Source: a virus
Taxonomy: Duplodnaviria; Caudoviricetes
Reading direction: 5' to 3' (one strand)
IMG/VR virus record: IMGVR_UViG_3300025015_000022
Span: 1 to 64,000 of that record
DNA length: 64,000 nucleotides
The position numbers and the translations under genes are program-made. The notes under the pieces were generated by a model. The model had not been told where the DNA came from and made no database searches. It saw nothing but the letters and a program-made list of their open reading frames with translations. Below are positions 5,861 through 31,060 of this stretch, piece after piece. Each line of letters opens with the position of its first letter. Position 1 is the first letter of the stretch.

Positions 5861-6189
5861 TCTTGGACGCCACCGACCGTCGCATCCTCGTGGCGCTGCT
5901 TCCGTTCGAAGCCACCGCCGCGACGATCGCGCGTGCTCTCGGCGTGGCCCGCTCGACACCAGGGCGCCACCTGCCTGCGCTCGAAGCTGCGGGGCTTGTG
6001 AGGTCGCGGTGGGACGAGGGCGCGTCGGCGATCGGCGCGCTGGTGTGGCGGTTGACGGGCAAGGGACGATCGCTCGCTGAGGGGATCGCGCGGGGCAACG
6101 AGGGGCTCGCGGCAGAGGCGATCGGGGCGGGTGACGACGTGGCCACTGAGGGCGCTGGTGACGTGGCTGGCGAGGGGTCGCGATCGTGA
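5857..6189 (+). CDS. winged-helix (ArsR/HTH-like) DNA-binding protein
   Basis: GTG overlaps the recD2 stop (GTGA). LDATDRRILVALL...ATIARALGVARSTPGRHLPALEAAGLV. Confidence 0.7.
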   Translation: MILDATDRRILVALLPFEATAATIARALGVARSTPGRHLPALEAAGLVRSRWDEGASAIGALVWRLTGKGRSLAEGIARGNEGLAAEAIGAGDDVATEGAGDVAGEGSRS

Positions 6190-6236: not shown

Positions 6237-6266
6237 TTGACGGGGATCGGCGGGGTGGCGTATGGT
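6237..6266 (+). promoter_or_regulatory. sigma70-type promoter of the replication operon
   Basis: TTGACG 6237-6242, 18-nt spacer ending GGCG, TATGGT 6261-6266. Confidence 0.65.
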
Positions 6267-6273
6267 CAGCACC

Positions 6274-6383
6274 GCTTGCCGTTCTGTGCCACAAAAAATG
6301 AACTCGCGCCTCCCGGTGGTGGGACGTCTACTCAGGACGGCAAGCACCCACCACCGGGAGATACGCGAGCGCTTGTGCGTCTG
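6274..6383 (+). ncRNA. structured leader RNA 1 (hairpin plus pseudoknot)
   Basis: Perfect 14-bp stem 6310-6323/6347-6360. 6274-6286 pairs with loop 6333-6345 (13 bp, one G-U). A second imperfect complement lies at 6371-6383. Confidence 0.6.
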
Positions 6384-6417
6384 GGGTGAGCGTCACGGAG
6401 GGGTCCAAGACGCGGGG

Positions 6418-6753
6418 ATGTGTGGGATGGGTGCCAAGAAGTGCGAAAGATCGAGCGGTCTGGATGCGAACACGGAAGCGATCTTGAACGAACTTGAACT
6501 GGCAATTCTTGACGACGACGATCCAGTTGATCGGGCTGTCGATGAGTACGTCGCCCGTGAGAAAGAAGCAGAGCAGATCCCGGTGGTTGTGTCGGTGCAT
6601 GGAAAGCTGACTTGCAGCCAGTGCCGTGACCATCGCGTGCGGGTGGCGGCGTTCTTCCGCACCGAAGACTGCCGACGCACGATCTGCGTGTGCGCGGCGT
6701 GCTTGAATGCCACGAGCGAAGCGGCAGACGTTGCAGGGGGCACGAATGGGTAA
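6418..6753 (+). CDS. small acidic protein with CxxC...CxxC zinc-finger; start uncertain (6262/6298/6418)
   Basis: CSQC and CAAC pairs. Stop overlaps the next gene start. Confidence 0.6.
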   Translation: MCGMGAKKCERSSGLDANTEAILNELELAILDDDDPVDRAVDEYVAREKEAEQIPVVVSVHGKLTCSQCRDHRVRVAAFFRTEDCRRTICVCAACLNATSEAADVAGGTNG

Positions 6754-7684
6754 TGTCCCCTGGGTACGCATGGACGCTGGCTTCGACTTCCACCCAGACG
6801 TGCGCCGAGCCGGTCACAACGGGTCGTCGGTGTTCCAAACGCTGGTGCGCTTGTCAAAGCTGTTGGGTCTCGACGGCCATCTGAAGGATAAGACACTCGA
6901 CCCCGATTACCTGTCGGACGTGATGCGCTGGGACACGGAGAGCGTCGAGAAAGGGATCGAAGCGTGCGTCCGAGTCGGGTTGCTGATCAGCGATGGGCAA
7001 GGCGGGGCCACAATTCCAGGCTGGGACAAGTACCAGAATCCGGACGCGCTACGCAAGCAGCTATCCAGATCGGAACGTCCGGACGAGGGCGGACAAGTCC
7101 GGACGCGGGCGGACTGTCCTGCTACGAGACGTGACGGGACGGGACAGGACGTGACGGGACGTGACGCAGATCAACCCCCCCTACCCCCCGCGAGCGGGGG
7201 GAGTCTCGCGCTTGCCGCTGACGCCACGGAATCACCTGCCGACGCACCGGCTGAACGTGGCGAGAGGAAGACACGCTGGACGGCTACTGCGTTCACAGAG
7301 AAGGACGCCACTGAGTTGTTCGATCGGTGGCGTGCGTACTTTGGCAAGGGCGAGCGGACGAAGTTCTCGTCAGACCGCATGCGCACCATCCATGCCAGGG
7401 CCAAGAAAGACACGACGCTGATGGAAGCGAAGATGGCTGTGATCGGGTGCTACGAAGAGAGCAAGAAAACCCTGTCGGACGGTCGCAAGCGCTCGGAAGA
7501 CGAAACGATGATCGCGTGGAACCTGATCTTCCGCAGCCGGTCCAACGTCGAGCGCTTCCGAGACATCGGCATGGCCAAGTTGAGGGCGGCGGGGTACCGG
7601 ATCAGCGACGATGGAACACAGGTGCTTCATGCAGACGGTACCGTGGCAACTGGAGCGGAGGTGGCCCGTGCACTTCGACGCTGA
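6746..7684 (+). CDS. replication initiator / replisome-organiser-like protein
   Basis: PWVRMDAGFDFHPDV N-terminus, repetitive central linker ending PPLPPASGG, helical C-terminal domain. Directly precedes primase-helicase. Confidence 0.7.
   Translation: MGNVPWVRMDAGFDFHPDVRRAGHNGSSVFQTLVRLSKLLGLDGHLKDKTLDPDYLSDVMRWDTESVEKGIEACVRVGLLISDGQGGATIPGWDKYQNPDALRKQLSRSERPDEGGQVRTRADCPATRRDGTGQDVTGRDADQPPLPPASGGSLALAADATESPADAPAERGERKTRWTATAFTEKDATELFDRWRAYFGKGERTKFSSDRMRTIHARAKKDTTLMEAKMAVIGCYEESKKTLSDGRKRSEDETMIAWNLIFRSRSNVERFRDIGMAKLRAAGYRISDDGTQVLHADGTVATGAEVARALRR
7039..7200 (+). repeat. iteron-like repeats inside the initiator gene (candidate origin)
   Basis: TCCGGA at 7039, 7078 and 7098 (palindrome CGTCCGGACG 7076-7085). 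GGCGGAC at 7088 and 7108. GACGTGACGGGAC at 7128 and 7148. Confidence 0.6.
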
Positions 7685-9677
7685 GCACGACGTCCGCGCG
7701 CTGGTCACCGAGAAGGGCTGGGAGGTGCTGTTCGAGGCCGCCCGTGAACTGTGGCTGAAGGTGTGCCCGCTCTGCGGTGGCGAGAGCCGTGACGTGAGCG
7801 ACAAGGCGTGCAGCTTCAACCTCGACAGCGGGGCGTTCCGCTGCTTCCGCGGTGGCTGTGCAGGTGGAGGTGGCAAGGGCCAGGGGCTCAACATCTGGAC
7901 GCTGCGCAAGGCCATCGGCGACGTGCTCGACATCGGCAGCTACACGCCGGGGAAGGTCGAGAAGGCGAAGGCCGCGGAGTACGTGCAGCGCTTGGCCACC
8001 GCCAAGGCGAAGCTCGCCAACGCCGATGGACCGGAGGCGTGGCACCGGCTGCTACTGGAGACGCCAGCCGCGCTGGAGTGGCTGGCGACGTGTGGCGGAC
8101 CGCTGAAGGGGCGAGGGCTCACACGGGAGACGGTCGAGCGCTTCCACCTCGGTCTGCACAAGGACGGACCGGAGCCGAAGGATCGGCGGTGGCTCACGAT
8201 CCCGTACTACCACGACGGCGAGCCCGCGCTCGTGAAGGAGCGCGCCATCGGGAACGTGGCGAAGGACGATTCGAGGTTCCGCCGCAGTCCTGCAGGTGCG
8301 CCATCGCTCATGTGGAATGCGGACGCGATCGCAGCGGGTGGCAGCCACGTGTACCTGTGCGAGGCCGAGATCGATGCGATCAGCCTGGAGCAGCTCGGGT
8401 TTTCGCCAGCGGTGGCAGCTAGCGCAGGCGCAGGTGCGTTTCCCGACGAGTGGCGCGAGCAGCTCGAGGCCGTCGAGAACATCGTGATCGTGTACGACAA
8501 CGACGCGATGGACGAGACGAGGACTGACGGGAAGAACCCCGGGGAGGATGGCGCCAGGAAGGTCGCGGAGGAGTTGGGCCCGTGGCGGTGCTACCGAGTG
8601 CAGCTCCCGCGAAAGGACGTCAACGACTGCCTGGTGCACTACGGGCCCACGGCGGCAGACGAGATCCGCAAGGCGATGGCGGCGGCGAAGCGCATGGGCG
8701 GGACGGGCATCGTGCACGTGAGCGAGGCCTTCGACGAGCTGCTGGCAGACCCGCTGGCGTCGGACTCGGGGTGGCAGACGGAATGGGATGGGTTGAACGC
8801 TGCGATCGGCGGCATCCGCAACGAGCTGATCGTGGTGACGGGCGACACCGAGGCGGGCAAGACGACGTTTTGCAACGCGCTGTTGCTGTGCCTGGCGAAG
8901 GCTGGGGCGCCTGGGTTGATGATCTCGCCGGAGATGACCCGCAAGCAGATCGCCCGCAAGCAGGGGTCCATGGTCGCGGGCAAGTCGTTTTTCCTGATGG
9001 ACGAGAGCGAGCGCCGGGCGGCCCGTGACGAGTTGGCGGAACTGCCGGTGCACGTCGGGCACTTCGAGGGCATGGTCGGTCTGAAGGTGGTCGAGAAGAC
9101 GATCGAGGCCTTCGTGCGTCGGCACCGCGGTCGCGTGGTGTTCGTCGACCATCTGGATTTCATCATGGACTGGCAGGCGCGGGACGAGCGGCACGAGATC
9201 AACCGCGTGGTGTTGGAAGTGCAGGGGTGGCCGGCGAAGTACGGGGTGGCGCTGGTGCTGGTGGCGCACCCGACGAAGAACCGGGTCAACCAGGTGACGG
9301 GGAAGAGCCGGCGCATCACCCGCGACGACATCCGTGGGTCGGCGGCGATCAAGCAGATGGCGATGACAATCCTGAGCCTCGACCGCGTTGGCGGCTCGCG
9401 GCTGAAGGTGTACGACGAGAAGGTCAGGTGGGACGGCATCCGGGTTCCTGGTGCGGTGCTGCTGGAGTACGACACGCGGACCATGCGCTACGTCGAGGTC
9501 GAGGAAGAGCAGGTCGTGAAGCGCCCACCGAAGGGCGCGAAGGCGAAGGGCAGCAACGGCCAGGCGGATCTCGAGGTCGGGACGACGAGTGGCCGGGATG
9601 GGGTCGACGGTGTGATCGATGCGCTGGAGGCGGCCGTGTTGGCCGACACCGGTGACGATGACGAAGCTGGGAGGTGA
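7668..9677 (+). CDS. primase-helicase (zinc finger + TOPRIM + T7 gp4/Twinkle-like helicase)
   Basis: GGAGGT RBS before GTG 7668. CPLC...CFRGGC, YLCEAEIDAIS, VYDND, GDTEAGKTT, FVDHLD, LVAHPTK, DIRGSAAIKQ. Confidence 0.9.
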   Translation: MHFDAEHDVRALVTEKGWEVLFEAARELWLKVCPLCGGESRDVSDKACSFNLDSGAFRCFRGGCAGGGGKGQGLNIWTLRKAIGDVLDIGSYTPGKVEKAKAAEYVQRLATAKAKLANADGPEAWHRLLLETPAALEWLATCGGPLKGRGLTRETVERFHLGLHKDGPEPKDRRWLTIPYYHDGEPALVKERAIGNVAKDDSRFRRSPAGAPSLMWNADAIAAGGSHVYLCEAEIDAISLEQLGFSPAVAASAGAGAFPDEWREQLEAVENIVIVYDNDAMDETRTDGKNPGEDGARKVAEELGPWRCYRVQLPRKDVNDCLVHYGPTAADEIRKAMAAAKRMGGTGIVHVSEAFDELLADPLASDSGWQTEWDGLNAAIGGIRNELIVVTGDTEAGKTTFCNALLLCLAKAGAPGLMISPEMTRKQIARKQGSMVAGKSFFLMDESERRAARDELAELPVHVGHFEGMVGLKVVEKTIEAFVRRHRGRVVFVDHLDFIMDWQARDERHEINRVVLEVQGWPAKYGVALVLVAHPTKNRVNQVTGKSRRITRDDIRGSAAIKQMAMTILSLDRVGGSRLKVYDEKVRWDGIRVPGAVLLEYDTRTMRYVEVEEEQVVKRPPKGAKAKGSNGQADLEVGTTSGRDGVDGVIDALEAAVLADTGDDDEAGR

Positions 9678-10633
9678 GGATCATGGGCGACGAGAAGTTG
9701 GTGGCGACTGGGTCGGTGGACGTGAAGGCCCGGGGGCACGCGGAGGCGAAGTGCGCGAAGTGCCACGGCACGGAGTGGAACGACCCCCGCATGAGCCACA
9801 CAGGGGGCATGGTGTCGATCGAGTGCGCGGCGTGCCAGCGGCGCAAGAAGGTGTTTCCGCCGATGCTGATCCTGCTGGCGGATGGCGCGGTGCACGAGGT
9901 GCTGTGGCACGAGGACGAGATCCAGCGCAAGCCGAAGCTCGAGGGCGACCTCGACGACGAGAAGTTCGTCACGGTCACATTCAAGGTCCCCAAGGCGGTG
10001 CGCGGGCGGCTGCGGTTCGCGGGTGCGATCGCTCGCGTGCTGAACGGCATCGACGCCGAGGGTGCGTGGCCGGTGTCGGTCATCGAGGCCATCGCAGAGG
10101 ACTACATCCAGGGCAACGAGCACCTGGTGACGGGCGTGACGCTTACGGAGACCGACGACGGCGACTTCGTGGCCGAGATCGCGGACGACGCGACGACGAC
10201 GCAGCACGAGCGGTCGGAGAGCGTGCGGCGCAAGATGACCGAGATGGGCACCGACCAGGTGGCGAAGGCGACGATGGCGCTCGCGGAGGAAGAGGGGCTG
10301 GCGGGTGACGAGCCCACGGTGGCGGACCTCGACGACGACGGCCCGCTGGGCGGCGAGACCACCGAGACCACCGCCGAGACCACCGCCGAGCAGCCGGCGA
10401 AGGGCTGGACGCCGCGGGTGGTGGGTGACGACGACCGGGCTGTGAGCGACGGCCAGCCGGTGGACGCGAAGACGGTGGGGCGCGCGGGGGAGCTTGAGCA
10501 GATGACGAACGAGTCGCTGGTGAAGCTGGCGCACGGGATGGGGCTGGTGGCCACGCCGCGCATGCCCAAGCGGCTTCTCGTGAGGATGATCATCGACGTC
10601 GAGTTCCCCCACACCGAAGCGCGGGGCGAGTAG
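9674..10633 (+). CDS. hypothetical protein: N-terminal zinc finger, C-terminal Rho-N-like helical domain
   Basis: CAKC/CAAC. LEQMTNESLVKLAHGMGL...PKRLLVRMII. Confidence 0.6.
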   Translation: MRIMGDEKLVATGSVDVKARGHAEAKCAKCHGTEWNDPRMSHTGGMVSIECAACQRRKKVFPPMLILLADGAVHEVLWHEDEIQRKPKLEGDLDDEKFVTVTFKVPKAVRGRLRFAGAIARVLNGIDAEGAWPVSVIEAIAEDYIQGNEHLVTGVTLTETDDGDFVAEIADDATTTQHERSESVRRKMTEMGTDQVAKATMALAEEEGLAGDEPTVADLDDDGPLGGETTETTAETTAEQPAKGWTPRVVGDDDRAVSDGQPVDAKTVGRAGELEQMTNESLVKLAHGMGLVATPRMPKRLLVRMIIDVEFPHTEARGE

Positions 10634-10888
10634 ATGGCAACGCCGATCATCGTGGGCGAGGGGTCCGCACGGTACCTGGAGCGCATGGCTGCGAACGCCG
10701 CGCGAGCCGAGGGGATCTTGCGCTACCTCTCGCCCGCGGTGCGTCGGCTGCACGGGTGGGAGCGCGAGATGGTGGAGCGCGTGATTGGCGAGGTTCGCGC
10801 GTGGCGGGCTGGCGGGGCGGTGCCCGGTATTGGCGACGAGACGCTGGTGAGGCTCGCGAGGATCGCAGAGCGGATGGACGGGGTGTAG
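10634..10888 (+). CDS. hypothetical protein
   Basis: Abuts both neighbours; phage-like codon use. Confidence 0.6.
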   Translation: MATPIIVGEGSARYLERMAANAARAEGILRYLSPAVRRLHGWEREMVERVIGEVRAWRAGGAVPGIGDETLVRLARIAERMDGV

Positions 10889-11605
10889 GTGATGATCCTG
10901 CTGAAACCTAGCGTGGTGCTGGAGTTCGGGCCGACCAATGAGGAAGCGGTGCGCATCTTGGAAGCGGCCGGGCGCGTGTGCTACAAGAGCGAGGCCAAGA
11001 GCGACGGGTCGCTGGCAGGTGCCGAGGCCTTCATCCGGAGGATCATCGAGCGCGGTCACGAGTCGGTGCTGGAGCACGTCGGCTGGACCCTGCGTTTCAT
11101 CACCGACCGAGGGGTCACGCACGAGTTGGTGCGTCACCGGATCGGGGTGGCGTTCTCGCAGGAGAGCACCCGGTACGTCGACCAGACGGCAGAGGGACAC
11201 GGCGGGCACTGCCAGTTCATCATTCCAAGCGGCATGTTCTACCGGTGTGCCATCACCCCAGGCCAGTACGAGAAGGGCCATCGTGCAGGTGTCGGGCTGA
11301 TCGGCGCTGACGACTTCGAGTTCGGGTGGGACTGGCTGGAGTGCCGGTGGTTCAACGTCATGCTGGAGGCAGAAGAGGCGTACAGCATCATGCGTCAGCA
11401 GGGGGTCTCACCGCAATGGGCTCGGGCGGTCCTGCCCAACTCGACCAAGACCGAGATCGTCATGACCTGCAACGCACGCGAGTGGCGGCACATCTTGAAG
11501 CTGCGTACCTCGTCGGCGGCGCACCCGCAGATGCGCGAGGTCATGGACGTAGCTCAGGCGCTGCTCGCCGAGCGGTGCCCGGTGCTGTTCGGTGTGACGC
11601 CATGA
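10889..11605 (+). CDS. thyX: FAD-dependent thymidylate synthase
   Basis: AGRVCYKS, GHESVLEH, ELVRHR-x5-SQESTRYV signature, ARAVLPNSTKTEIVMT.N.REWRH. Confidence 0.95.
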   Translation: MMILLKPSVVLEFGPTNEEAVRILEAAGRVCYKSEAKSDGSLAGAEAFIRRIIERGHESVLEHVGWTLRFITDRGVTHELVRHRIGVAFSQESTRYVDQTAEGHGGHCQFIIPSGMFYRCAITPGQYEKGHRAGVGLIGADDFEFGWDWLECRWFNVMLEAEEAYSIMRQQGVSPQWARAVLPNSTKTEIVMTCNAREWRHILKLRTSSAAHPQMREVMDVAQALLAERCPVLFGVTP

Positions 11606-11994
11606 CCACCCCCGCGCGCTCCCCCCGCCACCTCGCCACCGTCCGCACCCGCCCGTGCTGCCTTCGTGGTCTCGGGATGGGGCACTGCTTGGGGCCCGTC
11701 GAAGCGCACCACGCGTTCGGGAGCGCGACGGGTGGGGGCAAGGCGTTGAAGGGGTCGGACTTCGCGGCGGTCCCGCTGTGCCACCTGCACCACCAACGCC
11801 TGCATTCGGAGGCGGTGCCGGCTGTGTGGCTGGTCGAGATCGCGGCGGCGGCGATTCGGGGGGCGGTGGATGCGCTGGGCGAGGAAGGCGTCGAGGTGTC
11901 GGCGCTGGGCACGAAGGCGTTGCGGCTGGCGATCGGGCGGGCGGTGGGCGAGGTGGTCGAGACGGTGGACGAACTGGCGGGAGGTGGCGAGTGA
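11602..11994 (+). CDS. DUF968/Ref-like HNH-type protein
   Basis: RSPRHLATVRTRPCC...EAHH...GSDFAAVPLCHLHHQRLH. ATGA overlap with thyX. Confidence 0.7.
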   Translation: MTTPARSPRHLATVRTRPCCLRGLGMGHCLGPVEAHHAFGSATGGGKALKGSDFAAVPLCHLHHQRLHSEAVPAVWLVEIAAAAIRGAVDALGEEGVEVSALGTKALRLAIGRAVGEVVETVDELAGGGE

Positions 11995-12884
11995 GTTACA
12001 TGAGCATGGAGAACCTGTACAGGCCGCGTGCGCAGCGGATCCTGGAGTTCCGGCGGCTGTACGCGATGGAGAAGGTGCACGGCACGAGTGCGCACGTGAT
12101 GTACCGCGGCGGGGTTGTGCACGGCTCGTCGGGAGGCGCCGGAGCCAAGGCGTTCGAGGCGTGCTTCGACCGGCTGGCGCTGTGCGAGGCATTTCGTGCG
12201 CTGGGCCACGACAATGTGACCGTCTACGGCGAGGCATACGGCGGCAAGATGCAGGGGATGCGGCACACCTACGGCGACGCGCTGCGCTTCATCGCGTTCG
12301 AGGTGAAGATCGGCGAGACGTGGCTCGACGTGCCGAATGCCTGCGACGTTGCGACGAAGCTCGGTCTGGAGTTCGTGCCGTGGGTGGAGGTCGAGGCGCC
12401 GACGCGTGAGGCCATGATCGCGGCGCTGGACGAACAGCGCGACGCGCCGTCGCAGGTGGCGGTTTGGCGTGGCGTCAATGTCGAGAAGCCCCGCGAGGGG
12501 ATCGTGATTCGCCCGCCGTTCGAGTGCGTGAGCAGCGACGGGACGCGGTTGATCGCGAAGCACAAGGGCGCTGCGTTCGCCGAGCGCGCGCACCCGCCGA
12601 AGGTGGTCGACCCGGGGGATCTCGAGATCCTGCGTGACGCGGAGGCCATCGCCACCGAGTGGTGTACCGGAGAGCGTCTGCGACACGTGCTCGACGCGCT
12701 GGGGGTCGTCGACCTTGCGCCGGAGCACACGGGCAAGGTGATCGCTGGCATGGTCGCGGACATCGAACGCGAGGCCAGCGGTGAGGCGGAGTTAACGCGC
12801 GAGGCTCGGAAGGCCATCGGGACGGCGGCTGCGCGGCTGTACAAGGAAGCGCAGAAGGCTTCGTTGGCTGGAGGTGGCGATTGA
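11991..12884 (+). CDS. Rnl2-like RNA ligase
   Basis: Nucleotidyltransferase motifs EKVHGTS (I), YGEAYG (III), FIAFEV (IIIa), EGIVIRP (IV), IAKHK (V). GTG 11991 overlaps the upstream stop. Confidence 0.85.
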   Translation: MSYMSMENLYRPRAQRILEFRRLYAMEKVHGTSAHVMYRGGVVHGSSGGAGAKAFEACFDRLALCEAFRALGHDNVTVYGEAYGGKMQGMRHTYGDALRFIAFEVKIGETWLDVPNACDVATKLGLEFVPWVEVEAPTREAMIAALDEQRDAPSQVAVWRGVNVEKPREGIVIRPPFECVSSDGTRLIAKHKGAAFAERAHPPKVVDPGDLEILRDAEAIATEWCTGERLRHVLDALGVVDLAPEHTGKVIAGMVADIEREASGEAELTREARKAIGTAAARLYKEAQKASLAGGGD

Positions 12885-13138
12885 ATGTGCTGACCACGGA
12901 CAGGACTGGCGCGAAGAAGCTCGGCATGTACCCGCCTGGCGCGGTGGTCCAACTGCGCGAAGGGGTCGAAGGTCCAGACCAGCGCGTGGGCCACGTGGTC
13001 AGGACGTTCCTGGCGCCGATTGGGTACAGCGTTCAGCATGGCCGCGCTGGCGACAAGTGCCCGTTCAATTGGGGGCAGGCAGAGGTCGAGCGCGTTGGGT
13101 GGCGGCGGGCGCTGCGGTACCGCGTGACGGGGAGGTGA
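12881..13138 (+). CDS. hypothetical SH3-like small protein
   Basis: Overlaps the ligase stop; beta-rich sequence. Confidence 0.5.
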   Translation: MNVLTTDRTGAKKLGMYPPGAVVQLREGVEGPDQRVGHVVRTFLAPIGYSVQHGRAGDKCPFNWGQAEVERVGWRRALRYRVTGR

Positions 13139-13142
13139 CGAC

Positions 13143-13511
13143 GTGAATGTTGGACGCGACTTCAAGGTGATCGACGGGTTGCCGGTGTGCCAGACGCCGC
13201 GGGCGTTCGAGGCGTGCTGTGACGACTGCGCTGGGCTGGGGAACGACGGCGACGGAACGCCCCTGTGCATGGGCGAGGTGCGTGACGACCGCGCACGCCT
13301 GGTCGAGATCGCGCGGGTGGTCTACGGCCCCGACTACAGCGAGGCGTACGACAGCGAGCGGTCGCTGGCTGGGCTGGCGCAGGCGGTGGCGGCTGGGTGG
13401 GGCGAGAAGGAGCGGCTGCGGGGGGTGGCAGAGCTCTACGCGCGCTCCGACGACCTGGTGACTGCCGGCTGCCACTGCGACGGCGGCTGTGACGGGGGTC
13501 ACCATGGCTGA
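13143..13511 (+). CDS. hypothetical Cys-rich protein
   Basis: GGAGGT RBS; CCDDC and CHCDGGC. Confidence 0.55.
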   Translation: MNVGRDFKVIDGLPVCQTPRAFEACCDDCAGLGNDGDGTPLCMGEVRDDRARLVEIARVVYGPDYSEAYDSERSLAGLAQAVAAGWGEKERLRGVAELYARSDDLVTAGCHCDGGCDGGHHG

Positions 13512-14256
13512 CACCATGCGTCTGCGCGTCCAGCCCGCGAGCGTCGACACCCTCTCACGTGCCATCGTCACGGGGACGATTCGCGCGCTGTCGGTGCGGC
13601 AACCATGGGCCACTCTGCTCGTGGCAGGCTACAAGACGACGGAAAATCGCGATTGGCGCCCGCATGAGCGACTGCTGACCGACGCGGGCGGCTGGCTGTT
13701 GGTGCACGCGTCGAAGATCGCTGACACCCCGCGAGCTCACCGCGAGATCGACGACGTGGCTCGTCAGCACGTGGGACCGCTGCCACGCGAGGACGTCGAC
13801 ACCATCCTGCGGGCGATCGCGGGGGTGGACGTGGCTGCACTCGACGAATGGATGCAGTCGCGGGTTGCGGGGTGCGTCGAGGACCTGCGGATGGCGGACA
13901 CGACGTGTCTCCACTACCTGCTGGCGGCGAAGCAAGCGGTCGACGGGAAGGGTGGTGGCCAGAGGACAGGCGCCATCCTCGGAGCTGTGCACGTCGAGGG
14001 CTTCTCCGGTGGCGAGATGGGCGAGTGGGAGCCCGCGGACCCGTGGAAGGAAGACGGATCGATCGGGTGGCACGTGGACGCGGCGATCGACTTCCACGTG
14101 GGTGTCGCGGCGAATGGGTCGCTGGGGTTGTGGGCGCCCGACGACGCAACGCGGTTGGAGATCGGCGTCACCCGCCCGCTGTGGCGGTTGACCAGGTACA
14201 ACGGGGCGTTGGTGTTGCCCGCGACGGCGCTGGTAGAGTGCAACGCTGCGCGATGA
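13504..14256 (+). CDS. ASCH domain protein with long insertion
   Basis: ALSVRQPWATLLVAGYKTTENRDW, LLVHAS, GAILGAV, GSLGLW. Confidence 0.8.
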   Translation: MADTMRLRVQPASVDTLSRAIVTGTIRALSVRQPWATLLVAGYKTTENRDWRPHERLLTDAGGWLLVHASKIADTPRAHREIDDVARQHVGPLPREDVDTILRAIAGVDVAALDEWMQSRVAGCVEDLRMADTTCLHYLLAAKQAVDGKGGGQRTGAILGAVHVEGFSGGEMGEWEPADPWKEDGSIGWHVDAAIDFHVGVAANGSLGLWAPDDATRLEIGVTRPLWRLTRYNGALVLPATALVECNAAR

Positions 14257-14753
14257 TGGGGGGGGTGGCGATGTTCCACGCGATGTTTGAGATCCCTGGC
14301 GAACCGAAGGCCAAGCAGAGCGGGCGCCTGGGCACCGTACCGGACGCGCACTCGAAGACGGGGTTCCGCGCGATCATGTTCCCCGACAAGGACGTGAAGC
14401 AGTGGCAGAACCTCGTGGTGATGGCCGGGCGGTCGGTGACGCCGTTGGTTCCGCTGGCGGTTCCCCTGCGCGTCGAGGTCGTGGCCACGTTCGCCAGGCC
14501 GAAGAACCTGACCGAGCGCTACAAGGACGGCAGGCTCAAGAACGGGGCGCTCGAAGGGCGCATGTACTACGACCAGAAGCCCGATGGCGACAACGTGCTC
14601 AAGGGGATCAAAGATTCTCTACAGCAGGCGGGGTTCTGCGACGACGACAAGCGGTTCGTGGTCGAGGTGGTCTGCCGGTACTACGTGGCGATCGGTGAGG
14701 CACCGGCGGTGACGGTGGAGATCGAAGAACTGGACGCCAGCGACCCGGTGTGA
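14253..14753 (+). CDS. rusA: RusA-like Holliday junction resolvase (start may be 14271)
   Basis: FEIPGEPKAK, KPDGDNVLKGIKDSL...DDDK. Confidence 0.88.
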   Translation: MMGGVAMFHAMFEIPGEPKAKQSGRLGTVPDAHSKTGFRAIMFPDKDVKQWQNLVVMAGRSVTPLVPLAVPLRVEVVATFARPKNLTERYKDGRLKNGALEGRMYYDQKPDGDNVLKGIKDSLQQAGFCDDDKRFVVEVVCRYYVAIGEAPAVTVEIEELDASDPV

Positions 14754-14878
14754 CGATCCGCGTCTACAAGAGCGAGAAGGGCGTTTTGACGATGGTGATT
14801 TTCCAAACGGGTCGTCGGTAGGGTTCGCGGCTGGTCGTCGCGGATCGATACGGCGCGTTGCAAGCGGAGGGGCGATCG

Positions 14879-15643
14879 ATGGGCACGAGGGCGAGAGCGA
14901 ATGGCAAGAAGCGGGTGACGTGCTACCGGCAGCCGGCGGTGTCGGAGGCGGTGAAGCTGGCTGCGGAGGTGTCCACGCTGCGCCTGGCCAACGAGCGTCT
15001 GGGCCACGAGGTCGAGGCGCTGCGTGCCACGGTCGAGACGTACGACCATGTGGCAGAGGCGCGGGCGGCGTCCACCGAGGTCGCGGCCGTCGAGGCGTCG
15101 CTGCGCCGGATGGCCGACGAGCTGACCGCGGCGGTGGAGCGGGCGACCGCGGGGATGCAAGCCTCGGTGGCCGACGCGATCCGCCTGGGCGACGAGTACG
15201 GGCAGGTCGCGAAGTCGGCGCTGTCGTCGGCGCGGTCGGTGCGGAGTGATGCTCGGAAGGCGGTCGACCTGGTGCTCGTGGCGCAGTCGGTGGAGCGTGG
15301 GCAGTTGGAGCGGGCGTTGGTGGAGAACGGCCACCTTGCGGTGATGCTCGACGAGGTGGTGACGAGCGAGGGCCTGGCGCCGGCGTGGATGCTCGCGGAG
15401 TTCGAGAAGCTGACGAAGCAGCCGCGCGGTGAGACGCTGAACAAGGCGAAGATCCGCTACGTCGAGAAGGTGATCACGTGGTCGCTGAACCAGCGGGCAC
15501 GGGCTGCGGGTCGTGCGCCGGTGGTGGGTGAGCAGGCGGTTGAGCGGGTGGCATCCGAGCCCGTGGCCGTCGTCGAGAGCGTCTCTTCCCCCGTCGTCGA
15601 GCCCATCACCGAGCCCGTGCAGGTCGACCAGCCCGTCGCGTGA
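14879..15643 (+). CDS. coiled-coil hypothetical protein
   Basis: GGAGGGG RBS; heptad-rich Ala/Glu/Arg sequence. Confidence 0.6.
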   Translation: MGTRARANGKKRVTCYRQPAVSEAVKLAAEVSTLRLANERLGHEVEALRATVETYDHVAEARAASTEVAAVEASLRRMADELTAAVERATAGMQASVADAIRLGDEYGQVAKSALSSARSVRSDARKAVDLVLVAQSVERGQLERALVENGHLAVMLDEVVTSEGLAPAWMLAEFEKLTKQPRGETLNKAKIRYVEKVITWSLNQRARAAGRAPVVGEQAVERVASEPVAVVESVSSPVVEPITEPVQVDQPVA

Positions 15644-15681
15644 CCAACTCAACAAAAGTTACGTCGGCCTCCGATTTTTTG

Positions 15682-15710
15682 TTGCCACGTCCACCGATCT
15701 GGGGTATCTT
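15682..15710 (+). promoter_or_regulatory. sigma70-type promoter with AT-rich upstream element
   Basis: TTGCCA 15682-15687, 17-nt spacer, TATCTT 15705-15710; upstream CAAAAGTT and ATTTTTT. Confidence 0.65.
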
Positions 15711-15716
15711 CAAGCC

Positions 15717-15995
15717 ATGGAAGAGACGAACACCAGCAAGGGGACGACGATGGCCACGATGACGCAGACTGAAGCCCGCCGCGTGTTCGACGAGGTGATC
15801 GCCAAGTCGACCGATGCAGACCAGGTGGCCAAGGTCGAGATGCTCCGCGAGTTCTTCTGCAACCCTGGCTTCCGCGCGGCGATGGCCGACGAGGTCGCCC
15901 GCATCAATGACGCACAGCCCGTGTGGGTGATTGCCTGCGGTAAGCCGGACGGTACGACGAGCGGCGGCTTCCGCATCCCCCGCCCCACGCTGTAG
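15717..15995 (+). CDS. small helical protein, paralog A (start 15717, 15750 or 15759)
   Basis: 54-aa block matches 16214-16378. Confidence 0.7.
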   Translation: MEETNTSKGTTMATMTQTEARRVFDEVIAKSTDADQVAKVEMLREFFCNPGFRAAMADEVARINDAQPVWVIACGKPDGTTSGGFRIPRPTL

Positions 15996-16004
15996 GAGAC
16001 GACG

Positions 16005-16217
16005 ATGGCCAGCACGACGAGCACGGCGCGAGTCCAGGTGTGGAACCACAAGGGCAACGGTCGGACCACGTGGCGCGCGTGCACGGTGACGGGTCGTCGC
16101 CCGGCGCCGTTCTCGTTCGCAGCGCGCGGCAAGACGTGTGATTGGTTTGACGTGGTGACCAGCGACGGCGTGACGTACCGCAACTGCAACCCCGAGTGCG
16201 TGCGGGTGGCAGGATGA
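16005..16217 (+). CDS. hypothetical protein
   Basis: AGGAG RBS; stop overlaps the next ATG. Confidence 0.6.
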   Translation: MASTTSTARVQVWNHKGNGRTTWRACTVTGRRPAPFSFAARGKTCDWFDVVTSDGVTYRNCNPECVRVAG

Positions 16218-16378
16218 CGCGGGACGAAGCTCGCGCCATCTTCGACGACGTGATCGCCAAGTCGACGGACGCCGACCAGGTGGCCAAGGTCGAGTTGCTG
16301 CGCGAGTACTTCTGCAACGACGCATTCCGCGTGGCGATGGAAGACGAGATCGCCCGCATCAACGACGTTCAGCCGTAG
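16214..16378 (+). CDS. small helical protein, paralog B
   Basis: 41/54 aa identical to paralog A. Confidence 0.75.
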   Translation: MTRDEARAIFDDVIAKSTDADQVAKVELLREYFCNDAFRVAMEDEIARINDVQP

Positions 16379-16389
16379 GAGACGATGGC

Positions 16390-16725
16390 ATGCCCCCCAC
16401 CAAAAGCGAGCGCAGGCTCCACGAGACCATCCATCGACTGCGCAGCGAACTGGCCACGTCGAATGCGACGGTGGCGTACCTGCGCAAGCGGCTGCGGGAG
16501 GCTGCGATCGTGGTCGAGCCGGCGGGGGCGTCACGTGCCGAGGCGTTCGTTGATCCGCTGTACCGTGACGTGTTGCAGGCGTTTGGCATGGAAACGGCGT
16601 TGGCACTCACGAGCGACCCCGCGGACTGCGACGACGACCCCGCAGCCCACGCCGACGATTGCGGGCGTTGCGCGCTGTGCCCAGGCTTCGGCGACTGCGA
16701 CGACAACGAGAAGCACGGGGGGTGA
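16390..16725 (+). CDS. hypothetical protein with Cys-rich C-terminus
   Basis: AGGAG RBS; CGRCALC...C. Confidence 0.55.
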   Translation: MPPTKSERRLHETIHRLRSELATSNATVAYLRKRLREAAIVVEPAGASRAEAFVDPLYRDVLQAFGMETALALTSDPADCDDDPAAHADDCGRCALCPGFGDCDDNEKHGG

Positions 16726-16729
16726 CGAG

Positions 16730-17503
16730 GTGAAAAGGATTTTCGTGTGCAGTCCGTACGCGGGCCAGGTGCCCGGTGAAACCGAAGTCAACGTGATGGT
16801 GGCACGTCGCCTCTGCGCGGAGGTGCTATCCGCAGGCCACGCACCGTTCGCGCCGCATTTGCTGTACCCGCAGATGCTCAACGACCGCGACCATACCCAG
16901 CGCGCCAACGGCATCGCAGCAGGCCAGGCGTTCCTGATGGTCTGCGACGAGGTGTGGTGCTGGTCGATGGACGGCGGGTTCGTGAGCGCTGGCATGTACG
17001 CTGACCTGCGTGTGGCGATGAAGCTGGGCAAGCCGATACTGTACCCATGGGGCAAGCCGGATGGTCCGTGTCCGCTCGATCCTGCGGAGTGCGATGCGTT
17101 CGTGGCGATGGCTGCGATGTACGGCCCGCTGAGCGGCGAGATGCGCACGCTCCCGGTGAGCGGTGGCACGTTCGTGATCCGCAAGTCGACGCCGGAGATG
17201 GCTGCGAAGGTCGCGGTGATCACGCCCACGCCGTCACGCAAGCCGGTGCCCGTCGAGCCGATGCCCGACGACTTCCGCGACACCGACGTGCTGGACTCCG
17301 ACGTGGCCGACTTCGTTGCAGAGGTGGACGCGGCGATCGTGCTGTCGCATCAGCTCCCGTCGAAGGCCGACGACTTCTCGAGCAGCGTGCGCGAGAAGCT
17401 CCAGAGCATGCGCGAGTGGTGCGTCGAGAACAACGCCTACACGGAAGCGCAGCAGACCGCGGTCGACAACATGGACGCGGGGATGCGGAGGTGGATTCGA
17501 TGA
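16730..17503 (+). CDS. DUF4406-like (nucleoside deoxyribosyltransferase-fold) protein with extra C-terminal domain
   Basis: IFVCSPYAG, PFAPHLLYPQ, FLMVCDEVW, SAGMYADL...GKPI. Confidence 0.75.
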   Translation: MKRIFVCSPYAGQVPGETEVNVMVARRLCAEVLSAGHAPFAPHLLYPQMLNDRDHTQRANGIAAGQAFLMVCDEVWCWSMDGGFVSAGMYADLRVAMKLGKPILYPWGKPDGPCPLDPAECDAFVAMAAMYGPLSGEMRTLPVSGGTFVIRKSTPEMAAKVAVITPTPSRKPVPVEPMPDDFRDTDVLDSDVADFVAEVDAAIVLSHQLPSKADDFSSSVREKLQSMREWCVENNAYTEAQQTAVDNMDAGMRRWIR

Positions 17504-18075
17504 GCGACCAGGCAGAAGGCAACGGGACGATCGTCATCAGGCATGCGTGCGGTCACGTGTGGCGCTACCAGCCTCCGGAGTTCGTGGAGTGGGAGAAGCA
17601 CTACTGGACGTTGTTCGTCGACCACGCGCCGGAGACCAGGTGCTCGCACTGCCACAACGAAGAACCTCGCTACGGTGGTACGCCCACGGAAGCCACCAAG
17701 CTCGAGATCCAGGAGCGCGCATCTGTGCTCGCGGATCTGAACCGGCACTTCTCGAGGTGGCGGGAAGCTCTCGGTCAGCCTGACGACGGCTGCAAGGTGA
17801 CGCGCATCTACGGGCGGGCGATCGACACGTACACCACAGACCAGCTTCGAATCCATGCGACCAGGATGCGGGAGCGCGCAGACGTCGAGGTCGAGCAGCA
17901 CCGCCAGTACCGGGAGGTCACCCGCGAGCTGCGGAAGCTTCGTGAGCCCGATGACGGCGAAGGCCTGCGCGACCACCCGTGCTACTCGCGGGAGGCGGGC
18001 GTGCTCGTCGACTGCGAGGGTGACGGCTGGTACGGGTGCCGCGAGTGCACGCGCAAGAGCAGGAGCGCGGGATGA
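17500..18075 (+). CDS. hypothetical zinc-binding protein
   Basis: HACGHxW...CSHC; C-terminal HPC...CEGDGWYGCREC. Confidence 0.6.
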   Translation: MSDQAEGNGTIVIRHACGHVWRYQPPEFVEWEKHYWTLFVDHAPETRCSHCHNEEPRYGGTPTEATKLEIQERASVLADLNRHFSRWREALGQPDDGCKVTRIYGRAIDTYTTDQLRIHATRMRERADVEVEQHRQYREVTRELRKLREPDDGEGLRDHPCYSREAGVLVDCEGDGWYGCRECTRKSRSAG

Positions 18076-21000
18076 CCGCGGCCCATCGCAAGTATCTGGA
18101 GCGCGTCGAGTACGCGCTGCGAGCGCTGCCGCTTCCGTGTGCGGGATCTGGTACGCAGTCGCAGGGCATCGAGGGCTTCATCAGCTTCGGCCACGACATG
18201 GGCGTCGCGAAGCCGCTGGTCGAGGTGGCGATGCGGTTGATCCGCGGGCTGGGCACGCCGATGTTCGACGAGTGGGACCAGGAGCAACTCGACGAAGCGA
18301 TCGTGAAGCTTGAGGAGTTTATCGCGCGGCGGAAGGTAGAGCAGTGGTGCAACTGGTCGAAGCGAACCAGGCAGAGCCGGATGGAGGATGAAGCATGAGC
18401 ACGGTTGACAGGCTGCGCAGGTGCATCGGCACGACGTCGAGCGGGAACCGGTTCTTGCGGACGCCTCCGCAGCTTGATGATCTGCAGCGGGTGTTGGACT
18501 TCGTCGACCACGTGCGCCCGAAGACCGAAGACGGCTACTACGACATCGCGCTGCGTGTGATTGACGGGCTGAAGAAGCTGGACGGAGGCGACCGTGGCTG
18601 ACACCGATCCGCTGTGCCTGTTCATCGGCGGGCACCAGCATATGAAGCGCATCCGTGTTCCTCGCGGCATGGAGTGCGTCGAGGCGGCGGTCATTCAGAA
18701 GCGACCACTCGATAGCGATTTGCTCGGGACCGAAGTCGACACGAAGGTCACCACCGAGGTCTACCGGGTGATGGTGGTGTCGATGGGTGGGCTTCGATAT
18801 GGATACAGCATGGTGGTCTACGCGCCGGCCGCGTGGACTGCGGAGATGGCGATCAGTGAGATGGAGTCGATGCGCATCATCCTGGCGTCGACGGCCGCTC
18901 GGTGGTGGCTGCATCCGTGCAGGTGTTCGTGTCACAAGGAGTTGCGCGGGCTGTGGGCTGGCCAGTTGTACATGGATCTGTGGAAAGTGCTCGAAGATCT
19001 CTGCTCGCCGTCGATGGTGGAGTCGATGGACCCGGCGTCCGGTGTGCCCATGTCTTCGCTGCTGAGTGCGTTTGAAGCCGAACGGCAGGGGCCGTGCGGT
19101 GGCGAGTGTGTTCCGTTCGTTTTGCCACAGGCCACGATGACGATCAACGTGCTCGACCTGACGGTGATGGTGAGCGAGCACGGTGGACCCGAGACCGACG
19201 TTGACCTGGTCGATGGAGACGGGAGGCCGTACCCATGACTGACACCGATCGTGAGTTGCCAGAGATCATCGATGCGACGGTGCTACCTCCCGACGAGGTG
19301 GAGCGGCGTCGGCTGCACGACGTCGAGGTGTACGGCAACGCGTTCGTGCTGAAGCCACAACCTGAGTTTCCGCAGTGGTGCTTGCGAGCGCTCCGGAGCA
19401 TCGGAACGCCGATCTTCGAGTTGGATGATGGCAGGCGGGCGGTTTGTGTTGCGAGCCGCCCGTTGCGCGCTGGCGATGACGAGCACGTGCGCAGGATAAT
19501 CGAAGGCATGCGCATTTGTTGTCCGAAACACGTGGTGTCGGTCAGCACTGTGCCGCCGGAGGGCTTGAGCGCCGCCAGGTTCGACCAGTTCGATGAGCGC
19601 AAGTTGTACGGCGATTACGTCGACCAGATCATCATGGACGAGCCACCGTTCGAGCCGCCCGCCAGCGGGTACGGACCGCCCGCCATCCAAGAAGCGATGC
19701 GTGCGATCTCGACGCTGCGAGCCATCGAAGACGCCTACGGGCTGGGGCACACCACCGCCATCGACGCGCTCGCGTTGAAGCCACGCACCGACGATCTCGG
19801 CCCGCATCCAACGCAGGACGCGCTGACCCCCGCCAAGCTGACGCCAGCAGAGGCGCGGGTGGCTCGCAAGTTGGCGGGGCCGTGGCACGACGACAAGCCG
19901 TGGAAGCACCGCAAGAAGGGAGGGCGCTGACCATGCTGATCTCCGAAGTGCGCCGCTGGTACACGGACTGGTTCAAGATCAACCATGTCGTCGCTCGCGA
20001 GGATCGTGGGTGGGTGACGACGCTCTGCGGTGACTACACGACGGGCGCGGGGCATGCAGATCCCACCGCGAACAAGGCGGGCAAGGCTCGCGTGTGCTCG
20101 AAGTGCCGGAAGCGGTTGGCGGTGGCGAAGCCTGCGACGGGAGGTGAAGCGTGATGGACCGACCCACCGAGGCGATTGAGTACCTGGCGTCGTCGCTCAT
20201 CCCGTGCGCGAGCCTGGTGGTCAGCTATGCGCGTGCGCTCGAAGCTGAGCGGGCGTCGCTGGTCGAGAAGGCATGTACCATCGCAGACGAGCGCGATCGG
20301 AACGTCAAGCTGCTGGGCCACGTCGCCGTTGCGCTCGGCTGCCCGGGTGTGAGTGGCGAGGCGCTTGTCGAGCGGGCAGTCAGGATGGGGCGCTACGTTG
20401 GTGCGTCCATCGTCGCAGCGATGCGCGACACGCAGGGAGCACGAGACGCCGCGGCGGATGCGCTGCGGCTGTTGTTGGAGGCCACGCGATGATCAAGCCT
20501 GGTGACGAGATCACGGTGAATGGAACGAAGTTGCGAGCGACGTCGGTGAAGATCCCGCTGGCGGAGCGGTCTCCGGTCGGTGGCGCTGACGACCCAGACC
20601 GCCCATGGATACGCACCGTGTACGAGAGGAAGCCACGCGTCATCGTGTCGTTCGAGTTCGTGGACGAAGGAAGTATGCAGACGGTGTACCGATGAACCTG
20701 ACGATCACCTACGCCACCTCGCCGCGCGGTGGGCAGCCGGTGCCGATCTGTACCCACTCGAAGGCCACGCCGTGCGCGCACTACGTCGAGATCCGCGTGC
20801 GTGCGTTCAGGGGGCGTTGTGCGAATCTGGGTGCGACGAGCGGGGCCTGCATGATCGCGCCGATGAAGCCAGCGGGGAGGTGAGCGTGCTCGAAGTTCAC
20901 TGCCCCGTCTGCGGCAAGCTGGCGACGGTCTCGACGGACGCGAAGGTCGTGGTGCAGGGCGTCGTGCTCCTGGCCACGTTCACCGCCAACCACGTGTGCC

Positions 21001-21390
21001 TCGACGACCACGCCGGCACGGGCAAGACGTGCGCGTCGTGCGTGATGTGGCACGGCTGGAACCCGTGCGAGCCGGCGGGGAGACACACGGGCGCAACCGA
21101 TGCTGCGTGCCAGGCGTGGCGCGCTGCGCCTGCGTGGAGGGGGTGACGTGAAGTCCTACTACCAGCGCGAGCCCGAGATCGCCCACGTCACCCCCCCGCT
21201 GATCGCTGGCGCTCCCCGGGGTGCATCGGCGTCCATCCGCTGCGACAACGGGGCGGTGTACGATCGCTTCGACGATGGTGATGGTGGCCCACTCCAGTCG
21301 CGCAGGTGGCGGTGGGAGCGTCGAGAGGGATGCGGTCCACGTGACCCGTGGGGGTCGGTGCTGGGTGGGGTGCAGGGGTCGTTGCTGTAG
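18072..21390 (+). other. run of ten small overlapping hypothetical genes (18072-18398, 18395-18601, 18594-19238, 19235-19930, 19933-20154, 20151-20492, 20489-20695, 20692-20883, 20880-21146, 21148-21390)
   Basis: ATGA/GTGA stop-start overlaps and GGAGG-type RBSs; no recognisable families. Confidence 0.6.
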
Positions 21391-21403
21391 GCGAGGGAAG
21401 TTC

Positions 21404-21431
21404 TTGACGCGGTGGGTGGGAGGCGTACAGT
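21404..21431 (+). promoter_or_regulatory. sigma70-type promoter upstream of the methylase
   Basis: TTGACG 21404-21409, 16-nt spacer ending GGCG, TACAGT 21426-21431. Confidence 0.65.
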
Positions 21432-21437
21432 GCAGGC

Positions 21438-21534
21438 GTTGGCCCGCTGTTTCACAAGCAATCGAGCATCCGTCCCCGGTGGAGGTGCCGTCTCACCGGC
21501 GGGCCAACCGCCGAAGCCGGGGGCGGGTGCTTTT
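21438..21534 (+). ncRNA. structured leader RNA 2 (hairpin plus pseudoknot, followed by UUUU)
   Basis: 16-bp stem 21465-21480/21516-21531 (three G-U). 21438-21449 pairs with 21497-21508 (12 bp, one G-U). Inner hairpin GAG-N7-CTC. Confidence 0.6.
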
Positions 21535-31042: not shown

Positions 31043-31060
31043 GTTGTTGGCGGGGGGTGC

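Follow-up and report, generated by a model that had tools for sequence, protein, structure and literature searches.

Two leader regions in an uncultured phage, one ahead of the replication genes and the other ahead of a methylase operon, raise the question of whether they are built to one plan and what such a leader would do for the message that it heads. The source is a high-GC phage with an 84-kb genome (67% G+C; record rated 100% complete), and the window, the whole stretch of DNA that was analysed, covers 64,000 nucleotides of it. The initial annotation had described at each site a promoter of a common type followed by a pseudoknot of the same layout. All the parts that it described were present where it had placed them in both elements, which we call E1 and E2, and the common promoter type and pseudoknot layout were confirmed.

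Promoters and architecture of the two leaders

The features of the two elements are as follows.

5863..6189, + strand: winged-helix (ArsR/MarR-like) regulator gene; Pfam HTH_20 and HTH_5, PHROG 'transcriptional regulator'
6237..6266, + strand: E1 promoter; TTGACG (-35, 6237-6242), 18-nt spacer ending GGCG, TATGGT (-10, 6261-6266)
6274..6286, + strand: E1 P1a, nt 1-13 of the predicted transcript and 5' strand of the pseudoknot helix; pairs with 6333-6345
6287..6302, + strand: E1 A-rich single-stranded linker; CUGU-N3-ACAA-N2-AAU, its CUG lying within P1a
6303..6369, + strand: E1 long hairpin; 6-bp outer stem and 14-bp inner stem around a 23-nt loop
6303-6308 with 6364-6369, + strand: E1 outer stem
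6310-6323 with 6347-6360, + strand: E1 14-bp inner stem
6333..6345, + strand: E1 P1a', loop segment complementary to the transcript 5' end
6376..6426, + strand: 3' part of the E1 leader, nearly invariant between phages; stops at ATG 6427
21404..21431, + strand: E2 promoter; TTGACG (-35, 21404-21409), 16-nt spacer ending GGCG, TACAGT (-10, 21426-21431)
21435..21449, + strand: E2 P1a, first ~15 nt of the predicted transcript
21450..21463, + strand: E2 linker, carrying CUGU-N3-ACAA-N2-AAU as in E1
21464..21534, + strand: E2 17-bp hairpin; stem 21464-21480 with 21516-21532, 35-nt structured loop, UUUU at its end
21497..21512, + strand: E2 P1a', loop segment that pairs with P1a

The promoter pattern TTGACG-N16/18-TAnnnT occurs at two sites only in the whole 84-kb genome, ahead of E1 and ahead of E2. 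A relative, G002, has the same -35 box as the E1 promoter and the same 3' portion of the spacer, with TATCTT as its -10 box. The putative start sites of both leaders were placed from promoter geometry alone; P1a would thus begin 3-8 nt past the -10 box in E1, in E2 and in the E1 orthologue. The winged-helix gene directly 5' of E1, which has in-frame indels relative to G002, may encode a regulator that acts on the E1 promoter.

Each element heads an operon of about 9 kb, which in the case of E1 carries the replication genes and in the case of E2 begins with a Dam-type methylase gene. A hairpin followed by six U closes each operon, at 15663 for E1 and at 31018 for E2; the latter, which precedes the genes for terminase and portal, is the sole terminator-like site between 21.5 and 33 kb. 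The clear terminators of this phage have six U and then GUUGUUG. No tyrosine integrase or serine recombinase (resolvase) was found in the complete-rated record, so the phage is probably virulent, as judged from its gene content, although a plasmid lifestyle is also conceivable. A comparison of ThyX gave no informative host.

In E1 the two stems, 20 bp in total, are split by an asymmetric internal loop (6309 versus 6361-6363); no U-tract follows the stem, and 57 nt separate the end of the fold from the start codon. In E2 the terminal UUUU sits 14 nt ahead of the start codon. The helix between loop and 5' end, which had been put at about 12 nt, can reach 13 bp in E1 and, in E2, grow from 12 contiguous pairs to 15 bp with one bulge; with this many pairs it competes with the small inner hairpin.

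The folds against chance and in a related phage

Pairing of the loop with the 5' segment was far beyond chance at both elements. The duplex energy was better than that of all 5000 shuffles (5000/5000) for E1 and of ~4993/5000 for E2, and the z-scores of the folds were -4.3 to -4.4 and -2.7 to -2.8, respectively. When all hairpins of the genome with stems of 12 bp or longer were scanned on both strands, complementarity of more than 10 bp between the loop and upstream sequence was seen only in E1 (13 bp) and E2 (12 bp contiguous), and in none of 366 hairpins from dinucleotide-shuffled genomes. A hairpin near 69.6 kb, considered as a third member, has 10 bp of complementarity, which is within the shuffle range, and was rejected. 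The pseudoknot helix is stronger on the + strand in E1, E2 and the E1 orthologue through G-U pairs, and the 3-4 G-U pairs of the E2 hairpin likewise make that fold specific to the + strand. In all three copies, the distance from the start of P1a to the base of the stem is exactly 29 nt. When a loop pairs with a tail over more than one helical turn, the helix forms easily only if the free end is short. It is clear that the folds at E1 and E2 are non-random.

For E1 a comparison was available with one independent relative lineage (G001 and G002 are the same across the leader). Of 96 leader positions, 25 are changed in the orthologue (26% divergence), yet 33/33 pairs are retained, with five double compensatory changes and three of the G-U type; retention of this kind was matched in 0 of 200,000 simulations. 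Each helix was also significant by itself (pseudoknot helix, P = 3.6e-4; long stem, P = 6.4e-4). In G002 the pseudoknot helix has three substitutions in P1a and four in the partner strand, and 13/13 pairs are intact, while the inner stem has three double compensatory changes. The E1 fold is under selection, and both its helices are retained through compensatory change in this one orthologue. A nested pairing of the E1 5' end, which the minimum-free-energy fold shows, is not conserved.

It could be argued that such complementarity arises by chance in GC-rich intergenic DNA and has no function, as the genome has 67% G+C and E2 is without comparative support. The shuffle tests, the compensatory changes and simulations for E1, and the detection of E2 by a covariance model made from E1 (see below) oppose this, making it highly improbable overall and close to refuted for E1. 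For the E2 fold the support comes from statistics and from its likeness to E1.

The two phages also differ in a particular way around this locus. The promoter block is conserved, and the leader varies in sequence while its structure stays fixed. The 3' part of the leader is nearly invariant, whereas the genes after ATG 6427 are different in DNA sequence, the mosaic junction lying exactly at the start codon. We also considered a leader peptide starting at an AUG in the E1 linker, which shares the reading frame of the gene in both phages, and abandoned the idea, since the peptide sequence is not conserved and E2 lacks an AUG.

Kinship of E1 and E2 and their distribution

The two elements had been taken to be unrelated in sequence, which did not hold. 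They have in common the CUGU-N3-ACAA-N2-AAU linker and the 29-nt 5' segment, and a covariance model built from E1 and its orthologues alone had E2 as its best other match and aligned the linker motif. This motif, including the AAT, occurs in the 84-kb genome at E1 and E2 only. The sequence comparison suggests that E1 and E2 represent a single leader type in two copies, a class made up of these two and one orthologue. A role for CTGT-N3-ACA as a DNA operator is unsupported, the remaining copies sitting in a coding 12-nt tandem repeat.

No Rfam family, riboswitch families included, matches E1 or E2. A complete scan of IMG/VR for the promoter followed by CTGT-N3-ACAA gave 117 matches, with the fold in the known relatives only; the same type of pattern had two matches in 185,579 prokaryote genomes, both due to chance. 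Two metagenome scans found nothing, and 25 matches to an 18-mer were all chance. Homologues of E1, sought in IMG/VR by the helicase, primase and wHTH proteins as well as by the DNA pattern, came from the one independent relative lineage only. None was found there for E2, and G002 begins just beyond the E2 site; methylases 82% identical to that of the E2 operon were present on Logan contigs only. Cultured phages gave no DNA match, and their primase proteins were at most 28% identical. The motif is thus found solely in this phage lineage, which has no cultured relative. As for the proposal of a new class of regulatory RNA, the fold is indeed uncatalogued, but only two copies in one phage and one orthologue are on hand to define the class.

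What the leaders may do

The initial annotation had mentioned a 5'-end-protecting or attenuating fold as an alternative, and this is the reading that we favour as a best guess. Tentatively, and at somewhat less than even chances, we take E1 and E2 to be cis-acting leaders that sequester the 5' end and prolong the life of two long messages; the start sites, the order of folding and the stabilising role are all inferred. Host sigma-70 RNA polymerase would transcribe both leaders at the heads of the ~9-kb operons. The long hairpin would form first, and the free 29-nt 5' tail would then wind into its apical loop, giving a helix of 13-15 bp with the triphosphate end buried beside the top of the hairpin. 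Such an RNA, having no single-stranded 5' end, would be a poor substrate for decay by RppH followed by RNase E or by RNase J, and because of this the two messages would last longer. RppH and RNase E require single-stranded 5' ends, which explains how 5' structure stabilises a message (PMC3997798). The stem-loops of ompA and papA and the Bacillus stabilisers (PMC3997798) likewise have paired first bases at the head of a long message; in E1 and E2, however, it is the apical loop of a distant 17-20 bp hairpin, and not a local hairpin, that takes up the 5' end, and a conserved unpaired linker belongs to the element.

Other leaders of the phage bear on this reading both ways. In two more promoter-proximal leaders the first bases are part of long closing stems, as they are in one leader of a relative, and at 71722, the sole such leader with an orthologue, the closing stem is retained by compensation while the loops change. 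Three further sigma-70-type promoters show no 5' pairing, which counts against 5' sequestration. In addition, a simple 5' hairpin suffices for protection, and protection alone does not explain the pseudoknot and the conserved linker; the latter probably has a second role, in tertiary contacts or as a protein-binding site. If the helices were coaxially stacked, the linker of 14-16 nt would barely span them, and a bent geometry would be needed, or else the pairing would be intermolecular. Pairing in trans of P1a with the CGGCCAG loops of the leaders at 71.7 kb and 77.4 kb was rejected, as the relative has not conserved that loop.

Among the other explanations, processive antitermination seems to us unlikely, though less so than those taken up after it: the leader alone, or a boxA-like linker loading NusB/S10, would let the polymerase pass downstream terminators. 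HK022 put acts as RNA alone, while the lambda nut and rrn leaders act via boxA. E1 and E2 directly follow the two strongest early/middle promoters, in the manner of putL/putR and nutL/nutR (boxA and boxB) and of rrn boxA, where two related elements likewise stand behind two promoters. As in nut-type sites, they combine a boxA-resembling linear motif with a hairpin and have terminators downstream, here the hairpin and U6 sites at 15663 and 31018; moreover, neither a phage RNA polymerase nor a sigma factor was found when looked for. The E2 linker agrees with E. coli boxA in 10 of 12 bases, and the 64 kb of the window has just one other match as good. The boxA consensus is GYTCTTTAANA (PMC5725501), also given as UGCUCUUUAACA (PMC13753749). 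E2 has two mismatches, including position 4, and E1 and its orthologue have three, including position 6, so positions critical in E. coli are missed, although the boxA of the host may differ. The double mutation C4T/T6C, which changes both of these positions, destroys function in E. coli. The boxA-like motif overlaps the pseudoknot helix, the number of such matches in the genome is within chance, and the boxA idea came only after the motif had been seen. E1 and E2 also differ from nut-type sites in their 5'-end pseudoknot and in that no known N-like gene accompanies them. Also unlikely, to about the same degree as antitermination by itself, is the wider proposal of a new promoter-proximal RNA, one copy heading each long early/middle operon, whose 5' end is threaded into the loop to give a compact, knot-like module that acts on the polymerase during transcription (antitermination, factor-independent or Nus-assisted) or resists 5' exonucleases.

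An attenuator or sensor, in which the 5' pairing, under the influence of a protein or small ligand, decides whether the long hairpin terminates transcription (E2) or hides signals for translation further downstream, is doubtful. The E2 stem is followed by UUUU shortly before the start codon, P1 formed first would topologically hinder completion of the 17-bp stem, and the conserved linker could make a binding pocket; but E1 has no U-tract, E2 has only UUUU against the six U of clear terminators, no mutually exclusive alternative pairing is conserved and no riboswitch family matches. A terminator scan called 15663 and 31018 and neither E1 nor E2, their stems being too long and their loops too large. 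The pseudoknots of the T4 gene 32 leader and the rpsO (S15) operator likewise lie in an mRNA 5' leader; these, however, are small and control translation as protein-bound operators at or close to the ribosome-binding site, whereas the E1 fold stops 57 nt short of the start codon. RNase III sites are known behind early promoters (the T7 R sites) and in the lambda N leader. Cleavage here of the 17-20 bp helix, perhaps with the stacked helix of 13-15 bp, would leave a stable and well-defined 5' end of the mRNA, and both the two helical segments of E1 around their asymmetric loop and the position between promoter and first gene would suit it. As this lacks a sequence criterion and leaves the pairing of loop and 5' end and the conserved linker unexplained, we consider it improbable. 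We hold in no higher regard a self-antisense RNA of the kind suggested by the comparison with P4 CI and P1 c4, in which the hairpin, excised as a stable small RNA, would act in trans, its loop binding the 5' end of transcripts newly made from the same promoter and thereby switching the operon off or excluding related phages. As in P4 CI and P1/P7 c4, the loop is complementary to a more 5' site on the same transcript, target and antisense co-vary between relatives, and the operon that follows encodes a primase-helicase, as it does in P4. Duplexes between cognate partners are the more stable (-25.4 and -26.9 kcal/mol, against -20.1 and -13.8 kcal/mol across phages), and intermolecular pairing escapes the problem of linker length. 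RNAs of the CI/c4 family have targets on either side of the antisense segment (seqA and seqC; a2 and b2), are freed by RNase P and PNPase as stable small RNAs and serve the immunity of a prophage or plasmid prophage. Membership of that family found no support: the Rfam C4 and isrK models, which pick up CI and seqA relatives (PMC10111431), matched neither element at the gathering threshold or up to E = 10. The pairing of a second, downstream target, 'seqC', was significant in the window (21/2000 shuffles) and not in the relative, where 1566/2000 shuffled loops did equally well, and no other genomic target was found. Lysogeny genes were not found in this probably virulent phage, and a second copy before a methylase is unsuited to an immunity role. 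The PeSL cassettes of T4-type phages (PMC2839356, PMC4122927) likewise join a conserved promoter and a stem-loop at a mosaic junction with non-homologous genes, but their stem-loop lies upstream of the promoter and serves as a terminator, whereas that of E1 follows the promoter and is transcribed.

Structured leaders are a main means by which phages time and protect their transcripts, and few types are known beyond the model coliphages. E1 and E2 present an uncatalogued fold, with clear selection on the long loop-to-5'-end helix in E1. If they stabilise messages or modify the polymerase, they would be a compact, portable control part and would offer a way into the gene regulation of phages that have no cultured relative.

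Pseudoknot fold of the two leader elements

The initial annotation described two leader RNAs, E1 (6237-6383) and E2 (21404-21534), with one promoter type and one pseudoknot layout, and all the parts that it named were found where it had placed them. For the promoter pattern TTGACG-N15-19-TAnnnT, 0.33 occurrences would be expected in the window and two were found; with a looser -35 box the E1 and E2 sites were still the sole + strand matches in the whole genome. The transcript start sites are those predicted from the promoter geometry.

Structural features of E1 and E2
6303-6369, + strand: E1 long hairpin, 6-bp outer stem and 14-bp inner stem, 23-nt loop
6333-6345, + strand: E1 loop segment complementary to 6274-6286 (pseudoknot helix)
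21464-21532, + strand: E2 long hairpin, 17-bp stem
21497-21512, + strand: E2 loop segment complementary to 21435-21449 (pseudoknot helix)

The nested fold was more stable than shuffled controls (z -4.3 to -4.4 for E1, -2.7 to -2.8 for E2), and its unpaired 5' side measured exactly 29 nt in all three copies (E1, the E1 orthologue and E2). The loop-to-tail duplex of E1 (-25.4 kcal/mol) was equalled by 0 of 5000 shuffles and that of E2 (-33.2 kcal/mol) by 6-8 of 5000. Both strands of the whole genome were scanned for hairpins whose stem is 12 bp or longer and whose loop measures 12-50 nt. Just two of the 35 hairpins obtained had an upstream-to-loop complementarity above 10 bp, E1 with 13 bp and E2 with 12 contiguous bp, while none did among the 366 hairpins from 10 dinucleotide shuffles, and the pairings at both sites are thus beyond chance. 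In each of the three copies, G-U pairs give the + strand the stronger pseudoknot helix. E1 and E2 are a strand-specific RNA fold in which a helix of 13-15 bp joins the apical loop to the segment right after the promoter.

Conservation, kinship and spread

E1 was compared with the only independent lineage found to share it, the related IMG/VR records G001 and G002 being identical across the leader. Between the two phages, the 67 nt at 6180-6246, including the -35 box, show 100% identity, and the leader's 3' portion (6376-6426) is nearly invariant; of the 96 positions separating these two blocks, 25 differ. All 33 proposed E1 pairs are standard in both phages, with both-side changes in five (three of them in the long stem, the other two in the pseudoknot helix) and changes to or from G-U in three more. 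Partner columns shifted by 1-3 positions gave only 41-49% pairing. When the same number of substitutions was placed at random, 0 of 200,000 trials kept all pairs, and about 12 were broken on average; taken separately, P was 3.6e-4 for the pseudoknot helix and 6.4e-4 for the long stem. It is clear that the E1 fold is under selection, and chance complementarity is nearly excluded. A nested alternative, which pairs the 5' end with 6386-6393 in the minimum-free-energy fold of the window, is lost in the relative.

For E2, no homologue was found in IMG/VR, and the related contig G002 starts just beyond the site. Two metagenome scans were blank as well, and two 82%-identical methylases are known from Logan contigs only. 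Comparative support is good for E1; for E2 the case is a statistical one.

The two elements had been called unrelated in sequence, and this was refuted by a covariance model made from the two E1 orthologues alone, with nested stems only. Its best other + strand match in the window was E2, at full length (17.8 bits, rough E-value 0.03), and the alignment covers the first transcribed segment (P1a), CUGU, ACAA and the CCCCGG/CCGGGG stem core. The linker motif is also common to both: the 84 kb contain three copies of CTGT-N3-ACAA, and only those in E1 and E2 have AAT following. The two elements are best regarded as paralogues of a single element or, alternatively, copies under the same constraint.

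Rfam gave no match at gathering thresholds, and what appeared up to E = 10 was noise. This holds for the C4 and isrK models, which were used in a published survey to detect relatives of P4 CI and seqA (PMC10111431). When IMG/VR (2.9 million contigs) was scanned in full for the promoter with CTGT-N3-ACAA, there were 117 matches, with the fold in known relatives only, and a stricter pattern gave two matches in 185,579 prokaryote genomes, both by chance. Within reach of such exact-pattern searches, the element appears confined to this phage lineage; of the suggested new RNA class, two copies in one phage and one orthologue are seen.

Genomic setting and other leaders

Genes and leaders around the elements
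5863-6189: winged-helix ArsR/MarR-like regulator gene, its end 48 nt upstream of the E1 -35 box
31867-33615: presumed terminase gene without Pfam match, downstream of the 31018-31050 site
33626-35281: portal gene, downstream of the same site
71722-71805 and 77361-77463 of the whole record, G000 (outside the window; L191, L192): multi-hairpin leaders with closing stems starting right after the promoters and loop sequences in common

E1 stands before a replication operon and E2 before a methylase operon. E1 is followed by genes for a small CxxC protein, a weak replication-initiator homologue, a Toprim/DnaB-type primase-helicase, ThyX and an RNA-ligase-domain protein, and E2 precedes a D12-class adenine methylase gene. 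The E1 operon ends at 15663 with a hairpin and U6 terminator overlapping the -35 box of the next promoter, a sigma-70-type TTGCCA-17-TATCTT (15663-15710); the leader behind this promoter is short and unstructured. The E2 operon ends at 31018-31050, and no other terminator-like site lies within 21.5-33 kb. Here a hairpin and U6 come immediately after the late promoter TTGACG-17-TAAACA (30978-31050), an arrangement like lambda PR'-tR', and promoter and hairpin are both kept in the relative (L014:1501-1565) with compensating stem changes.

Two CGATCG-centred palindromes (6180-6187, 6222-6229) inside the identical 6180-6246 block may be operators. The start codon that follows the E1 leader is the exact site of a mosaic junction (6427-7684; L010:1729-3016 in G002); in both phages gene 1 encodes a small CxxC...CxxC protein and gene 2 a replication-initiator-like one, neither of which aligns at the DNA level. 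G002 also has an insertion of ~1.08 kb (L010:60-1146) between the RecD2-like helicase and winged-helix genes, with internal 45-nt tandem repeats and a protein weakly similar to the D12 methylase N-terminus.

Unlike E1 and E2, the leaders at 71722 and 77361 pair their first bases in ordinary closing stems. In the G002 orthologue of the former (L194, ~1570-1690) the closing stem is kept by compensation, the loops are changed and the CGGCCAG loop is lost. An 880-bp insertion in the relative (G002 57399; L016:1501-1660) carries an extra promoter, and the first bases of its leader pair with a segment ~100 nt downstream, enclosing two hairpins, with the direct repeat ACCACCTCTGG flanking the 3' strand. 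Leaders at three further phage promoters are unstructured. Pairing of the 5' terminus is the sole feature common to four otherwise different leaders of this phage.

The IMG/VR record (84,464 bp, rated complete, the window being its start) is circularly permuted. Both its ends lie in a 12-nt tandem repeat (window 1-205; G000 84340-84464) that is part of a gene and encodes xDSL repeats, and the assembly probably broke inside this repeat. The window has 64-70% G+C and nearly all genes on the + strand. No DNA-level match to cultured phages was found, and primase identity was at most 28%. Since searches for a tyrosine integrase, a serine recombinase and a sigma factor were negative, the phage looks virulent and reliant on the host polymerase. 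Short direct-repeat clusters in an ORF-poor gap outside the window (G000 72640-72790; ~4 copies like CCAACTTGGCG, 3 of GAACAGACCA) resemble iterons and are a candidate origin marker.

Possible roles

An antitermination signal seems unlikely. The elements do stand behind two promoters with terminators downstream, and the E2 linker shares 10 of 12 positions with the boxA of E. coli. However, E2 departs from the published consensus at position 4 and E1 at position 6, and when both positions are mutated together, boxA loses its function in E. coli (PMC5725501); the likeness was also noted only after the motif had been seen. An attenuator is quite improbable: four U after the E2 stem would suit it, but E1 does not fit. 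Self-antisense control of the P4 CI or P1 c4 kind, raised in the initial annotation, is slightly more doubtful still: cognate duplexes are stronger than cross-phage ones, yet we found no other pairing target, no Rfam model match and no lysogeny gene, and the 'seqC' pairing, significant in the window, is not so in the relative. A family tie to these RNAs was therefore not upheld. We give an equally low chance to a candidate RNase III site.

The reading we favour, tentatively, is that the leader sequesters the 5' end of the message against RppH and RNase E, or against RNase J, because these decay routes need single-stranded 5' ends (PMC3997798) and four leaders have 5'-terminal pairing. Our confidence is modest since a plain hairpin would suffice and the conserved linker has no explanation; with the helices coaxial, 14-16 nt of linker would barely span them. 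A short free 5' end would wind into the hairpin loop, as only so would a loop-tail helix of more than one turn be topologically easy, and this need would explain the position of the element at the extreme 5' terminus. In sum, one phage has two copies of a genuine, uncatalogued pseudoknot leader, and we rate the element as a variant of the structured 5' leader of phage mRNAs.
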